Of a stretch of 21,105 nt of DNA, positions 3,238-7,892 are shown in pieces; the stretch's first letter is position 1; each line of letters starts with the position of its first letter. The DNA lies in IMG/VR virus record IMGVR_UViG_2657245439_000019; one strand, 5' to 3'. Made by a program: the position numbers and the translations under genes. This DNA is from a virus (Duplodnaviria; Heunggongvirae; Uroviricota; Caudoviricetes). The notes below the pieces were generated by a model. It searched no databases. It was not told where the DNA came from and worked only from the letters and a program-made list of their open reading frames with translations.

Positions 3238-3509
3238 GTATTCGTATTGAAATTGGCAAACGTTATGTCGTTACCAGTGACAGCTTTCAGTTTATTCTCC
3301 ACGAGAAAAAGAGAGCGGAAAGCGGTAAAAACGCCGGTCAGGAATGGCTGGCGGTGGTTGGTTATTACCCGAAATTAGGCCAGCTCGTTTCCGGCCTGAT
3401 GCATCACGATATTCTGACCGGAAGCGCAAAATCTTTTGCTGATTTAAACGCGCAGGTTGAGCAACTCAGCAAGCGTTGTTCAGAGGCTTTTGGCTCATAT
3501 GGCCGTTAA
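3234..3509 (+). CDS. Hypothetical early protein (P2 orf83 position)
   Basis: 91-aa ORF, coupled to the zinc-finger ORF upstream and overlapping the A start. Confidence 0.5.
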   Translation: MSIRIEIGKRYVVTSDSFQFILHEKKRAESGKNAGQEWLAVVGYYPKLGQLVSGLMHHDILTGSAKSFADLNAQVEQLSKRCSEAFGSYGR

Positions 3510-5775
3510 AGCCTCCGGGCGTTTTGTCCCTCCGTCAGCATTTACCGCAGGCACCGGTAAGGCGTTTACCGGTGCTTATGCATGGAACGCGCCACGCGAG
3601 GCTGTCGGGCGCGAAAGACCTCTTACACGTGACGAGATGCGTCAGGTGCAAGGTGTTTTATCCACGATTAACCGCCTGCCTTACTTTTTGCGCTCGCTGT
3701 TTACTTCACGCTATGACTACATCCGGCGCAATAAAAGCCCGGTGCACGGGTTTTATTTCCTCACATCTACTTTTCAGCGTCGTTTATGGCCGCGCATTGA
3801 GCGTGTGAATCAGCGCCATGAAATGAACACCGACGCGTCGTTGCTGTTTCTGGCAGAGCGTGACCACTATGCGCGCCTGCCGGGAATGAATGACAAGGAG
3901 CTGAAAAAGTTTGCCGCCCGTATCTCATCGCAGCTTTTCATGATGTATGAGGAACTCTGCGATGCATGGGTTGATGCGCATGGTGAAAAAGAATCGCTGT
4001 TTACGGATGAGGCGCAGGCTCACCTGTATGGTCATGTTGCTGGCGCTGCACGTGCTTTCAATATTTCCCCGCTCTACTGGAAAAAATACCGTAAAGGACA
4101 GATGACCACGAAGCAGGCATATTCTGCCATTGCCCGCCTGTTTAACGATGAGTGGTGGACTCATCAGCTTAAAGGCCAGCGTATGCGCTGGCATGAGGCG
4201 TTACTGATAGCTGTCGGGGAGGTCAATAAAGACCGTTCTCCTTATGCCAGTAAACACGCCATTCGTGATGTGCGTGCGCGCCGCCAGGCAAATCTGGAAT
4301 TTCTTAAATCGTGTGACCTTGAAAACAGGGAAACCGGCGAGCGCATCGACCTTATCAGTAAGGTGATGGGCAGTATTTCTAATCCTGAAATTCGCCGGAT
4401 GGAGCTGATGAACACCATTGCCGGTATTGAGCGTTACGCCGCCGCAGAGGGTGATGTGGGGATGTTTATCACGCTGACCGCGCCGTCAAAGTATCACCCG
4501 ACACGTCAGGTCGGAAAAGGCGAAAGTAAAACCGTTCAGCTTAATCACGGCTGGAACGATGAGGCATTTAATCCAAAGGATGCGCAGCGTTATCTCTGCC
4601 GTATCTGGAGCCTGATGCGCACGGCATTCAAGGATAATGATTTACAGGTCTACGGTTTGCGAGTCGTCGAGCCACACCACGACGGAACGCCGCACTGGCA
4701 TATGATGCTTTTTTGTCATCCACGCCAGCGTAACCAGATTATCGAAATCATGCGTCGCTATGCGCTCAAAGAGGATGGCGACGAAAGAGGAGCCGCGCGA
4801 AACCGTTTTCAGGCAAAACACCTTAACCGGGGCGGTGCTGCGGGATATATCGCGAAATACATTTCAAAAAACATCGACGGCTATGCACTGGATGGTCAGC
4901 TCGATAACGACACCGGCAGGCCGCTGAAAGACACTGCAGCGGCTGTTACCGCATGGGCGTCAACGTGGCGCATTCCGCAATTTAAAACGGTTGGCCTGCC
5001 GACAATGGGGGCTTACCGTGAACTACGCAAATTGCCTCGCGGCGTCAGCATTGCTGATGAGTTTGACGAGCGCGTCGAGGCTGCACGCGCCGCCGCAGAC
5101 AGTGGTGATTTTGCGCTGTATATCAGCGCGCAGGGCGGGGCAAATGTCCCGCGCGATTGTCAGACTGTCAGGGTCGCCCGTAGTCTGTCGGATGACGTTA
5201 ACGAGTACGAGGAAGAAGTCGAGAGAGTGGTCGGCATTTACGCGCCGCATCTCGGCGCGCGTCATATTCATATCACCAGAACGACGGACTGGCGCATTGT
5301 GCCGAAAGTTCCGGTCGTTGAGCCTTTGACTTTAAAAAGCGGCATCGCCGCGCCTCGGAGTCCTGTCAATAACTGTGGAAAGCTCACCGGTGGTGATACT
5401 TCGTTACCGGCTCCCACACCTTCTGAGCACGCCGCAGCAGTGCTTAATCTGGTAGATGACGGTGTTATCGAATGGAGTGACCCGGAGGTCGTGATGGCGC
5501 TCAGGGGCGCATTAAAACACGGACTGAGAACACCAAATCGTCAGCAAAGAAACGGAATCCCGTTAAAACCGCATGAAATTGCACCATCTGCCAGACTGAC
5601 CAGGTCTGAACGATTGCAAATTACCCGTATCCGCGTTGACCTCGCTCAGAACGGTATCAGGCCGCAACGATGGGAGCTTGAGGCGCTGGCGCGTGGCGCG
5701 ACCGTAAATTATGACGGGAAAAAATTCACGTATCCGGTTGCTGATGAGTGGCCGGGGTTCTCGTTACCCATTTGA
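3499..5775 (+). CDS. A: Replication initiation endonuclease gpA (rolling-circle initiator)
   Basis: ORF 3457..5775. Chosen start is the Met at 3499 (MAVKASGRFVPP...). HUH-type motif HWHMM is encoded at 4692-4706 and a YxxxY motif (AGYIAKYISK) at about 4840-4870. Long stretches match my recollection of P2 gpA. Confidence 0.9.
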   Translation: MAVKASGRFVPPSAFTAGTGKAFTGAYAWNAPREAVGRERPLTRDEMRQVQGVLSTINRLPYFLRSLFTSRYDYIRRNKSPVHGFYFLTSTFQRRLWPRIERVNQRHEMNTDASLLFLAERDHYARLPGMNDKELKKFAARISSQLFMMYEELCDAWVDAHGEKESLFTDEAQAHLYGHVAGAARAFNISPLYWKKYRKGQMTTKQAYSAIARLFNDEWWTHQLKGQRMRWHEALLIAVGEVNKDRSPYASKHAIRDVRARRQANLEFLKSCDLENRETGERIDLISKVMGSISNPEIRRMELMNTIAGIERYAAAEGDVGMFITLTAPSKYHPTRQVGKGESKTVQLNHGWNDEAFNPKDAQRYLCRIWSLMRTAFKDNDLQVYGLRVVEPHHDGTPHWHMMLFCHPRQRNQIIEIMRRYALKEDGDERGAARNRFQAKHLNRGGAAGYIAKYISKNIDGYALDGQLDNDTGRPLKDTAAAVTAWASTWRIPQFKTVGLPTMGAYRELRKLPRGVSIADEFDERVEAARAAADSGDFALYISAQGGANVPRDCQTVRVARSLSDDVNEYEEEVERVVGIYAPHLGARHIHITRTTDWRIVPKVPVVEPLTLKSGIAAPRSPVNNCGKLTGGDTSLPAPTPSEHAAAVLNLVDDGVIEWSDPEVVMALRGALKHGLRTPNRQQRNGIPLKPHEIAPSARLTRSERLQITRIRVDLAQNGIRPQRWELEALARGATVNYDGKKFTYPVADEWPGFSLPI

Positions 5776-5990
5776 GTAAAAACACAACGTGATTTGATAT
5801 GGCATTGAATGGCTTATGCGGAGCAGTTATGGGGCAGCAGAAGGTCAATAGCATGCTGAATTAGAAGGCTAAATGCTATTGAGTGACTAGCATGTCGGTA
5901 AGGACAGCCGTTTGATCCGGGTCATAAAAGGCCATCCATTTAGTCTAATAAAATCATTGCGGGTAACCTTATGTCGACGCATAATTCGTC

Positions 5991-6005
5991 TTGAGCGAAG
6001 TCTTG
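5991..6005. repeat. 15-bp exact direct repeat, copy 1 (TTGAGCGAAGTCTTG)
   Basis: Identical 15-mer recurs at 6255-6269. The two copies bracket the bidirectional terminator and the small minus-strand ORF. Confidence 0.6.
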
Positions 6006-6035
6006 TCAGTCTTTCATCGTATTGATGATGGGCGC

Positions 6036-6069
6036 AAAAAAACCACCCTGGCAGGTGGTTTTTTTGTTT
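6036..6069. terminator. Bidirectional rho-independent terminator
   Basis: A-run (6036-6042), stem AACCACC (6041-6047), loop CTGGCA, stem GGTGGTT (6054-6060), then T-run (6059-6065). Symmetric A/T flanks allow termination on both strands. Confidence 0.65.
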
Positions 6070-6077
6070 GAAGCATA

Positions 6078-6191
6078 TTAAAGCATAATGCTGACATTGA
6101 TATTACTGACGTTTACTGACAAACCACTCGGACTACCGTTTGGATAGCCAAAGAGGGCCAGAACGAGAATGCAGTAATAGCATTTCTTCAT
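6078..6191 (-). CDS. Hypothetical small protein, 37 aa (MKKCYYCILVLALFGYPNGSPSGLSVNVSNINVSIML)
   Basis: ATG at 6189-6191 (minus) with AGGAGG Shine-Dalgarno 4 nt upstream. Stop at 6078-6080, followed by the bidirectional terminator. Hydrophobic N-terminal segment. An in-frame upstream ATG at 6344 would give 88 aa but has no RBS. Confidence 0.3.
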   Translation of the reverse strand: MKKCYYCILVLALFGYPNGSPSGLSVNVSNINVSIML

Positions 6192-6254
6192 ATTGCCTCC
6201 TGTAAGTAGAGGGCAACTTCCACCGGTATATGCGCTTCTTAGGTGGAATGACTT

Positions 6255-6269
6255 TTGAGCGAAGTCTTG
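6255..6269. repeat. 15-bp exact direct repeat, copy 2 (TTGAGCGAAGTCTTG)
   Basis: Identical to 5991-6005. Lies in the 5' leader region of the small minus-strand ORF. Confidence 0.6.
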
Positions 6270-6669
6270 CCCTGAAATAATGCTCTGTTTAAACGCAAAG
6301 TGATTTGGCATATCACCGAACAGAGAGCCGGAAAAACACAACATATAGTATGTCGTTGTTTCTAGACATACATTCTATGTTGTGTAACAAGGGCTTTGCA
6401 TTAAACATGTTTGAGATTTTATTGATGTAGCTCAAAGTAAAAAACAGAGACTACGGATGATAAGGTCTTGAAAGCAATGTAAATTTTTTAAGGTTGCCAA
6501 TTGCTTAAAAATGTACAGTTGCGGTATGGCGTACTTAAAAAGCTATGCATGCAACAAGTGAATGTTTTTGCATGCGTTGGGGATGTCCGTTCAGGCTGCG
6601 TGCGGTCAGGACTGGTGCGGATCCATAGTATCTATGCAACTGCATTAAAACCGCCCCGTGAAGCGGGCG

Positions 6670-6688
6670 GGCGAGGCGGGGAAAGCAC
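6670..6688. other. cos cohesive-end sequence (P2/P4 type)
   Basis: GGCGAGGCGGGGAAAGCAC at 6670-6688 matches the 19-nt P2 cohesive end as I remember it. It sits between the A-distal cargo and Q, where cos lies in a P2 prophage, with GC-rich dyad CCGCCCCGTGAAGCGGGCGG just upstream. Confidence 0.6.
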
Positions 6689-6830
6689 TGCGCGCTGGCG
6701 GTGGTGCTGATTTTATTTTTTCAGCGTCTCAGCGCGTCGTAATGGCGTTTAGATTGTGCGCCGGGGCGTTGGTTTGTCTGCGGGCTGTTTTGCGCGGTGG
6801 TGAGCGTGTGAGGGCGTGATGACGGGGTGT

Positions 6831-6857: not shown

Positions 6858-7892
6858 TCAGCCGTTGTCAGTGTCCAGTGAGTAGTTTTTAAAGCGGATG
6901 ACCTCCTGACCGAGCCAGCCGTTTATTTCCCGAATCCTGTCCTGTAACGGGATAAGCTCATTGCGGACAAAGACCTTTGCCACTTTCTCAATATCACCCA
7001 GCGACCCGACGTTCTCCGGCTTGCCGCCCATCAACTGAAAGGGGATGCGGTGCGCGTCCAGCAGGTCTGCGGCGCTGGCTTTTTTGATATTAAAAAAATC
7101 GTCCTTCGTTGCCACTTCACTGAGCGGGATAATTTTAATGCCGTCGGCTTTCCCCTGCGGGGCATAGAGAAACAGATTTTTAAAGTTATTGCGGCCTTTT
7201 GACTTAACCATGTTTTCGCGGAGCATTTCGATATCGTTGCGATCCTGCACGGCATCAGTGACGTACATGATGTATCCGGCATGTGCGCCGTTTTCGTAAT
7301 ACTTGCGGCGGAACAGCGTGGCCGACTCATTCAGCCAGGCAGAGTTAAGGGCGCTGAGATATTCCGGCAGGCCGTACAGCTCCTGATTAATATCAGGCTC
7401 CAGCAGGTGAAACACGGAGCCGGGCGCGAAAGCTGTCGGCTCGTTGAAGGACGGCACCCACCAGTAAACATCCTCCTCCACGCCACGACGGGTATATTTG
7501 GCCGGTGAGGTTTCCAGTCTGATGACCTTACCGGTGGTGCTGTAACGCTTTTCCAGAAACGCATTACCGAACACCAGAAAATCCAGCACAAAACGGCTGA
7601 AATCCTGCTGGGAAAGCCACGGGTGCGGGATAAACGTTGAAGCCAGAATATTACGTTTGACGTAAATCGGTGAACTGTGATGCACGGCAGCACGCAGACT
7701 TTTTGCCAGACCGGTAAAGCTGACCGGCGGCTCATACCATCTGCCGTTACTGATGCATTCGACGTAATCCAGAATGTCACGGCGGTCGAGTACCGGCACC
7801 GGCTCGCCAAAGGTGAATGCCTCCATTTTCGGGGCGCTGGCGGTCATTGTTTTTGCCGCAGGTTGCGGTGTTTTCCCTTTTTTCTTGCTCAT
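6858..7892 (-). CDS. Q: Portal protein gpQ
   Basis: 344-aa ORF starting MSKKKGKTPQPAAKTMTA..., which matches P2 Q as I recall it. Start ATG overlaps the P stop (ATGA). Confidence 0.9.
   Translation of the reverse strand: MSKKKGKTPQPAAKTMTASAPKMEAFTFGEPVPVLDRRDILDYVECISNGRWYEPPVSFTGLAKSLRAAVHHSSPIYVKRNILASTFIPHPWLSQQDFSRFVLDFLVFGNAFLEKRYSTTGKVIRLETSPAKYTRRGVEEDVYWWVPSFNEPTAFAPGSVFHLLEPDINQELYGLPEYLSALNSAWLNESATLFRRKYYENGAHAGYIMYVTDAVQDRNDIEMLRENMVKSKGRNNFKNLFLYAPQGKADGIKIIPLSEVATKDDFFNIKKASAADLLDAHRIPFQLMGGKPENVGSLGDIEKVAKVFVRNELIPLQDRIREINGWLGQEVIRFKNYSLDTDNG

Follow-up and report, generated by a model that had tools for sequence, protein, structure and literature searches.

Organization of the locus

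The window analysed here, the whole 21,105-nucleotide stretch of the virus record IMGVR_UViG_2657245439_000019 (Caudoviricetes), is a P2-like prophage. Between its replication endonuclease gene A and portal gene Q, on the minus strand, lies a 37-codon open reading frame (ORF) for which an earlier reading of the bare sequence (the original prediction) had suggested a small membrane-active peptide of the type I toxin or superinfection-exclusion kind. The ORF, its AGGAGG ribosome-binding site (RBS) and the terminator following its stop codon are all found as described there. They belong to a module of about 500 bp whose organization is probably that of a type I toxin-antitoxin or addiction system, the ORF representing the protein-coding half and a convergent small RNA (sRNA) gene the candidate antitoxin. 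The module comprises the following features.

5945-6486, no strand assigned: whole portable module, as given by the extent of homology to plasmid, inovirus-adjacent and other copies
5957-5985, plus strand: putative sRNA promoter (-35 TTGCGG at 5957-5962, 17-nt spacer, -10 CATAAT at 5980-5985)
5992-6066, plus strand: predicted sRNA of about 74 nt, candidate antitoxin (fold z = -4.16), consisting of 5' seed (5992-6007), middle hairpin (6009-6033) and terminator (6035-6066)
6035-6066, no strand assigned: bidirectional intrinsic terminator common to mRNA and sRNA (inverted repeat I1)
6078-6191, minus strand: 37-codon ORF, stop codon included in the coordinates, MKKCYYCILVLALFGYPNGSPSGLSVNVSNINVSIML, supported by codon-position bias and lineage comparison
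6196-6201, minus strand: Shine-Dalgarno (SD) sequence AGGAGG, 4 nt 5' of the ATG
6192-6364, minus strand: structured 5' untranslated region (UTR) of about 173 nt, predicted from covariation and folding
6208-6216, minus strand: anti-SD sequence UUGCCCUCU
6255-6271, minus strand: predicted sRNA target site GGCAAGACUUCGCUCAA, one copy of a DNA direct repeat
6283-6325 and 6218-6248, minus strand: predicted UTR helices H1 (6325..6319 with 6289..6283), H2 (6317..6312 with 6304..6299) and H5 (6248..6242 with 6224..6218)
6372-6400, minus strand: putative promoter of the peptide mRNA (TGCAAA at 6400..6395, 17-nt spacer, -10 TAGAAT at 6377..6372)

The 37-codon ORF is a conserved gene

The ORF starts with an ATG at 6191..6189 and ends with a TAA at 6080..6078. 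Its RBS-ATG motif alone is not beyond chance: AGGAGG-N3-9-ATG occurs once in the window, shuffled windows average 0.67 occurrences, and the motif turns up in 51 of 100 shuffles. The ORF was therefore judged to be a real gene on the comparison with homologues and not on the bare motif. Across 38 P2-type loci it has 14 variable sites; 11 of them are third codon positions, three are first positions, and second positions are unchanged. A binomial model, calculated by hand, gives a probability of about 7e-4 for 11 or more of 14 sites falling on one specified codon position. Eight lineages across the family all retain the start, the stop and a length of 37-38 codons, with proportions of synonymous differences (pS) of 0.39-0.84, of nonsynonymous differences (pN) of 0.16-0.28 and omega values of 0.08-0.41. 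GGAGG is unchanged in the first eight lineages and reads GGUGG in L070, a locus of an N15-like phage-plasmid. The test of conservation and of synonymous versus nonsynonymous change that had been proposed for this frame thus came out in its favour, and the 37-codon ORF is a genuine conserved gene under purifying selection. No other small ORF or 3-base periodicity was found in a search across positions 5776-6500.

The in-frame ATG at 6344, which had also been pointed out and would give an 88-aa product, exists. In the same P2-type loci, variable sites in this extension are distributed 8/6/7 over the codon positions, without periodicity, versus 11/3/0 in the ORF, and the region is occupied by the covarying UTR; the 88-aa frame (6344..6078) was rejected on these grounds. 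Database entries for the peptide, such as ECW_m2278 of E. coli W, all call it a hypothetical protein. A few deposited E. coli variants (P0003, P0013 and P0014) have lost the stop codon, which results in a 68-aa ORF running through the terminator; these are probably rare mutants.

Properties of the peptide

Thirteen residues of the peptide are invariant: M1, C7, I8, L9, V10, L11, L13, G15, Y16, P17, S22, S25 and S29. The C-terminal half shows an alternating polar/apolar pattern, phphphpphphph, that is nearly unchanged in eight peptides (one position is off in L065) and persists though the residues themselves differ. Members of the family have grand averages of hydropathy (GRAVY) of 0.66-0.95 and net charges of 0 to +2. 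As a hydrophobic protein of less than about 60 aa specified by a genuine gene, the peptide answers to the general description of a type I toxin. No A-X-A-type site follows a 7-15-residue h-region, as would be expected for a cleaved Sec signal peptide; a short uncleaved signal-anchor at the N terminus is conceivable. The peptide had no match in Pfam or NCBIfam at E<=10 and none in PHROGs.

The predicted convergent sRNA gene and the shared terminator

The putative sRNA promoter, TTGCGR-17 nt-CATAAT, is present with an unalignable spacer in nine of nine lineages, and also in L070. The seed sequence (U)GAGCGAAGUCUUG begins 6-7 bases after the -10 hexamer and is likewise found in L070. The length of the predicted sRNA (70-74 nt) and its terminator are kept in nine of nine lineages, while the middle hairpin varies in sequence between lineages and is predicted in seven of nine folds. 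Within the P2-type loci, the substitutions at 6018 (C>U) and 6030 (G>A) preserve pairing on the plus strand only. Another candidate plus-strand promoter, inside the repeat with TTGAGC as the -35 element, was rejected by eye for want of an acceptable or conserved -10 hexamer.

The hairpin at 6035-6066, which starts 11 nt past the ORF stop, has a perfect 13-bp stem and a 6-nt loop and is predicted to terminate transcription on both strands, because it lies between an A-run and a T-run. Its loops in the two RNAs are mutually complementary, UGCCAG in the mRNA and CUGGCA in the sRNA, and stem and loop are identical across lineages except for one loop base in L053. This near-invariance in lineages differing by 25-30% elsewhere exceeds what termination alone would need. 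The terminator also bears a likeness to the 3' hairpin of ColE1 RNAI, seen as sub-threshold Rfam RNAI matches of 24-45 bits against a gathering score of 47. At E<=1, only terminator-driven sub-threshold RNAI and Phe-leader matches were obtained from Rfam for the window, and on the module of four other loci nothing apart from a terminator-driven sub-threshold RNAI match (L045 1075-1174).

The original prediction had proposed a search for an antisense sRNA on the opposite strand. A candidate partner sRNA gene was indeed found, but in another arrangement: it adjoins the ORF and converges on it instead of lying antisense to it, and would overlap the mRNA at the shared terminator only.

The structured leader of the mRNA

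The promoter motif TGCAAA-17 nt-TA(G/A)AAT is invariant in ten lineages, with a diverged spacer, and places the probable mRNA start near position 6364. The predicted mRNA of the window folds with z = -4.56. In the UTR consensus structure of nine lineages, 98.5% of cells are paired, and seven double-sided pair changes are observed, compared with 1.8 +/- 1.1 in shuffles (none of 500 reached seven) and 0-3 in slid controls. Compensatory changes include CUCUGUU/AACAGAG to CUCUGCC/GGCAGAG or UCCUGUU/AACAGGA, and UUCCACC/GGUGGAA to UCCUUCAG/CUGAAGGA. A further helix, linking the bases just 5' of the target with the segment just 5' of the SD, is compensatory by inspection: AGGGCAA:UUGCCCU in the window, GGUGACA:UGUCACC in L044 and GGUGGCA:UGCCGCC in L053. 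The SD is base-paired in the minimum free energy structure of the full-length mRNA in eight of eight lineages, with predicted partners that differ between them; in some, the SD region is predicted to reach over a long range to the 3' end.

Predicted pairing of the sRNA with the mRNA

The 5' end of the predicted sRNA is the reverse complement of the conserved 5'UTR block 6271..6255. In the DNA this corresponds to an exact 15-nt direct repeat, 5991-6005 and 6255-6269, within 1 kb. The predicted seed-target duplex has 16 bp and a free energy of -29.1 kcal/mol in the window, and 14-19 bp and -25 to -34 kcal/mol across lineages; it lies about 55-75 nt upstream of the RBS and ends 54 nt upstream of the SD (6201..6196). 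The same site is the best predicted sRNA-mRNA interaction of the window outside the terminator, at -39.1 kcal/mol versus -27.7 +/- 3.4 for shuffled sRNA (0/500). Pairing holds in 91.7% of cells over 18 positions and eight distinct lineage pairs, and three flanking positions remain paired through their changes (G:C/G:U; C:G/U:A/U:G; C:G/U:G). In the target of L070, an A>G substitution in the core gives a U:G wobble. At the level of sequence, the ORF accordingly has beside it an RNA gene able to pair with its mRNA, as type I systems generally do.

The module is portable and widespread

Comparison by blastn of window positions 5600-6800 with the loci L053, L045, L062, L065 and L044 gave 70-75% identity, with homology bounded by window positions 5912/5947 and 6443/6487. 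These bounds describe a portable cassette of about 500 bp and leave 5776-5944 to the P2 backbone. When the 37-aa peptide served as query in an exhaustive phmmer search, relatives 56-69% identical were recovered at loci other than P2. Two distant copies, on a metagenome contig and in Kluyvera georgiana, adjoin inovirus genes (Secretin, Zot, DUF2523). Further copies, in Citrobacter, an N15-like element and plasmids, were found by DNA-pattern and BLAST searches. The Citrobacter freundii contig with the module is 99.8% identical to an Enterobacter hormaechei plasmid, and in the N15-like phage-plasmid (L070) the module is located between a Toprim RepA-like gene and the protelomerase gene. PLSDB holds 414 plasmids with the module, 394 of them from Klebsiella and 351 conjugative, including a pLVPK-type IncHI1B/IncFIB plasmid. 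The original prediction had likened the orientation of the ORF to that of cargo genes in P2; rather than a cargo gene proper to P2, the unit is a portable cassette that plasmids, inoviruses and an N15-like phage also carry.

A degenerate back-translated pattern of the ORF had no matches in genome contigs and found just the two P2 haplotypes in metagenomes. The gapped two-repeat DNA pattern matched eight loci in genome contigs, of which two are true (Kluyvera and Citrobacter); the other six, in unrelated taxa and lacking the terminator, were discarded. Copies of the 12-mer AAGACTTCGCTC, in some cases three, are spaced 246-276 nt apart in L048, L049, L050, L052, L054 and L055 (Brocadia, Haloglomus, an archaeal metagenome-assembled genome, Bacteroidia and Salinimicrobium). 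None of these loci has the terminator, and the recurrences may be unrelated repeats of those genomes.

A virulence-type Klebsiella plasmid has a dinQ/agrB type I locus some 1 kb away from the module (L064 2938-3075; L062 3325-3412). That locus is recognised by the annotation pipeline PGAP and by Rfam (AgrB, 45 bits), and the neighbouring module is left unannotated.

Comparison with known type I systems

The nearest architectural parallel is the par locus of pAD1 and its Firmicutes relatives, which have convergent promoters, a shared bidirectional terminator, direct repeats and a stem that pairs the SD (PMC7472228). The module resembles par(pAD1) Fst/RNA II in the convergent promoters, in the shared bidirectional terminator with mutually complementary hairpins, in a direct repeat that is read in opposite directions to give a second complementary region, and in the intramolecular stem pairing the SD. 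Both encode a small hydrophobic peptide (Fst 33 aa, here 37 aa), and both are found on plasmids and phages. The par-type layout is thus present here with one repeat, in contrast to the two (DRa and DRb) of par(pAD1), whose repeats overlap the translation initiation region, whereas the site here lies 55-75 nt upstream of the SD. The antitoxin RNA is about 40 nt there and about 74 nt, with an extra hairpin, here; kissing of the terminator loops is only conjectured for the present module; and the hosts are Firmicutes there and Enterobacteriaceae here. The peptide has no similarity to Fst or Ldr and lacks a charged C-terminal tail.

In the distance between sRNA site and RBS, the module is closer to ZorO/OrzO of E. 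coli O157, whose zorO UTR measures 174 nt (PMC5397157), and to TimP/TimR of the Salmonella ryfA locus, in which the site is also far upstream of the RBS and TimP is described as having an N-terminal signal-like sequence. The likeness extends to an adjacent, separately transcribed sRNA, a short seed far upstream of the RBS, a long 5'UTR (about 173 nt here) and a small toxin-like peptide; both systems are described as chromosomal, whereas the present module is on mobile elements. No sequence, Rfam or Pfam similarity to either system was found. The zorO-orzO and timP-timR genes are divergent neighbours, unlike the convergent genes with a shared terminator seen here.

With hok/sok the module has in common the niche of conjugative plasmids and prophages, and an mRNA locked by extensive structure, including the long-range contact of SD region and 3' end predicted in some lineages; pKPN3-type plasmids carry hok too. 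Sok, a cis-antisense RNA, covers the 5' portion of the hok mRNA and works via a leader ORF, whereas here the overlap is confined to the terminator, Hok homology is absent and there is no second ORF. Neither the peptide nor the RNAs showed similarity to the family models of Hok/Sok, Ldr/Rdl, TisB/IstR, ShoB/OhsC, ZorO/OrzO, Ibs/Sib, DinQ/AgrB, SymE/SymR and RyfA-TimP, and literature searches with the peptide, seed and terminator sequences retrieved no description of the module. From its sequence we file it as par-type in architecture, yet outside the Fst/RNA II family and every named enterobacterial type I family; most likely it is a new, widely distributed, unannotated family of a known kind of system.

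Proposed function and alternative explanations

The type I toxin idea of the original prediction gains support from the discovery of a partner sRNA gene with conserved complementarity and of a long, structured 5'UTR that pairs the SD; the peptide itself fits the idea less well. Transcription from the moderately weak minus-strand promoter would yield an mRNA of about 330 nt, comprising the UTR of about 173 nt with its paired SD, the ORF and the terminator, and the convergent plus-strand promoter would yield the sRNA of about 74 nt ending at the same terminator. The 5' end of the sRNA would pair with the 5'UTR of the mRNA, the two terminator hairpins being complementary to one another. Peptide synthesis would then be blocked, either by refolding of the UTR that keeps the SD paired or by cleavage of the duplex. 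After loss of the element, or a block of sRNA synthesis, the peptide would be made, and this small uncharged hydrophobic product may harm the cell envelope. The carrier, whether P2-like prophage, inovirus, N15-like phage-plasmid or Klebsiella plasmid, would be stabilised in this way, or infected cells would be killed. Production of both RNAs with the ends given, repression by the sRNA and toxicity of the peptide are all inferences. The occurrence of the module in unrelated mobile elements (191 E. coli genomes, inovirus loci, an N15-like element and 414 plasmids) was counted as a further addiction-module-like trait.

Several observations weigh against this interpretation. The peptide does not look like a typical type I toxin: across the family, the longest stretch of apolar residues measures 6-11, a charged C-terminal tail is absent, and the window peptide has no charged residue after position 3. 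The canonical lipobox (L-[AS]-[GA]-C) is missing, as had been said in the original prediction: the hydrophobic segment has no Cys after it, and the invariant motif at this place is L-x-G-Y-P. The AlphaFold2 single-sequence model of the peptide has a predicted local distance difference test (pLDDT) score of 60 and is uninformative. TimP shows that a small protein controlled by an sRNA may be non-toxic at native levels. On the RNA side, both putative promoters match the consensus at eight of 12 positions and neither was detected by a promoter scan. Covariation between seed and target is weak, with two double changes, a number reached by 50 of 500 shuffles; it is limited because both cores are nearly invariant, and the proposed pairing rests on conserved complementarity plus compatible changes, not on strong covariation. 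The switch model, in which sRNA binding frees the anti-SD, is backed by folding in three of the six lineages correctly scored: with the target blocked, SD accessibility fell in L003, L045 and L053 and was unchanged in the window, L001 and L044; two further lineages, scored on an earlier GGAGG by mistake, are not counted. Finally, the first 150 of 176 kb of pKPN3, from K. pneumoniae MGH 78578, the strain with differential RNA sequencing (dRNA-seq), contain no module.

The short apolar segment and the uncharged, beta-patterned tail, both unusual for type I toxins, make a non-toxic envelope or exclusion function a serious alternative. The peptide would then be an accessory membrane or secreted protein (superinfection exclusion, anti-phage or envelope modulator) tuned by the sRNA, and the module would have spread by benefit to its carrier and not by addiction. 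This explanation, which we consider rather unlikely but well worth keeping in sight, draws on the location of the P2 copies in an anti-phage hotspot between gpA and gpQ (PMC9122126), on an N terminus like a short Sec signal or anchor, on a C-terminal amphipathic beta-like pattern unlike that of helical type I toxins, and on the tolerance of TimP at native levels. Against it stand the paired SD, the dedicated sRNA, the long UTR and the carriage on conjugative plasmids, a phage-plasmid and inoviruses, which are typical of addiction modules. The module also stays beside other defence cargo and does not replace it, and PADLOC found no match to a known defence protein for three family peptides.

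Two other explanations deny the peptide itself a role. If the ORF were a leader or regulatory ORF, ribosomes at its stop codon, 11 nt from the terminator stem, could modulate termination and read-through antisense to gene A, whatever the sequence of the peptide; the deposited variant reading through the terminator as a 68-aa ORF would be in keeping with this. Purifying selection on the peptide, its 13 invariant residues and the kept hydropathy pattern make this very improbable, as does the same form of the module where no equivalent of gene A lies downstream. Scarcely more credible, and if anything less so, is that the true product is the 88-aa protein from 6344, the form often reported by gene callers (PGAP annotates nothing), or that the ORF is a chance frame in the 3' untranslated or terminator region of gene A, given the 0.67 AGGAGG-ATG motifs expected per window. 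The extension lacks codon periodicity, its region is occupied by covarying RNA helices and the sRNA target, N-terminal extensions are wholly different between lineages, and the 37-38-codon frame is kept with its start and stop at pS values of up to 0.8.

Going beyond the type I toxin-antitoxin interpretation as such, we put forward tentatively, as a possibility that falls short of even chances, that the module represents an undescribed par(pAD1)-style type I family native to Enterobacteriaceae, with the shared terminator as a kissing site and a toxin consisting of a short hydrophobic segment and an amphipathic beta-type tail in place of a transmembrane helix. Four unrelated classes of mobile elements would have it as a general addiction or abortive-infection cassette, virulence and resistance plasmids of Klebsiella and the defence hotspot of P2 among them. 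If the type I interpretation holds, annotation has overlooked a complete peptide and sRNA module that is carried by about 3.5% of complete E. coli genomes and by over 400 sequenced plasmids; most of these plasmids are large conjugative ones of Klebsiella, pLVPK-type virulence plasmids included. Such modules affect the persistence of plasmids and prophages and can cause abortive infection, which would make this one a candidate target for plasmid curing. The convergent shared-terminator architecture of Gram-positive par loci would then also exist in enterobacteria, and small genes under RNA control can sit in P2 hotspots where surveys based on proteins see nothing. Because the predictions for the two RNAs, the seed and the start codon are precise, the hypothesis lends itself to a direct test with a few constructs.

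Setting in the P2-like prophage

The module is flanked in the prophage by the following features.

Stop at 5775, plus strand: replication endonuclease gene A, from the ORF list and relatives, which begin with MAVKASGRF (window position 3499)
6670-6688: cos-like sequence GGCGAGGCGGGGAAAGCAC (19 nt), which we take to be the P2 cohesive end
6858-7892, minus strand: portal gene Q

The module thus occupies the gpA-gpQ interval beside cos. This cos-proximal region of P2-like phages is a hotspot and reservoir of anti-phage systems (Rousset et al., PMC9122126). In the window, the hotspot is without any gene of annotated size. The region 3' of gene A is present in 191 of 5426 complete E. coli genomes, where PGAP gives no annotation at the module. 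Three phage records have it too, Salmonella phage MET_P1_103_31 and a genome labelled Peduovirus P2 that is entered twice; among these three, the 37-aa coding sequence is annotated only in MET_P1_103_31. The unit of about 720 bp borders varied downstream cargo: ImmA/IrrE with hypothetical genes, an AAA ATPase with a hypothetical gene, or none. The cos-proximal segment 6535-6657 matches at about 95% many other P2-like phages (Yersinia phages, P2-EC67), which themselves lack the module.

The 38 P2-type loci represent two haplotypes that share about 86% identity, together with mosaics of both. Recombination between haplotypes has occurred inside the module: L004 (E. coli 446) switches near window position 6076 and L005 (BroCaecum-55) near 6300, so that sRNA and mRNA halves of different origin are joined, with complementarity retained.

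The P2-specific segment 5776-5944, from the gene A stop to the module, is free of indels; about 30% of its sites differ between the two haplotypes, a divergence far exceeding the synonymous divergence of gene A (pS about 0.08-0.10). Positions 5787-5819 of the plus strand are predicted to pair with 5979-6006, which covers the sRNA -10 region and seed; the pair 5787:6006 changes on both sides, and three further pairs change compatibly on one side. Should transcription of gene A read through to the 6035-6066 terminator, its 3'UTR would hold, and could mask, the sRNA seed. An imperfect direct repeat (73% over 30 nt) connects 5780-5809 (AAACACAACGTGATTTGATATGGCATTGAA), in the P2 spacer directly after gene A, with 6291-6320 (AAACGCAAAGTGATTTGGCATATCACCGAA), the copy that forms H2 in the 5'UTR. 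Positions 6547-6575, between the module and cos, contain the inverted repeat GCATGCAACAA / TTTTTGCATGC.

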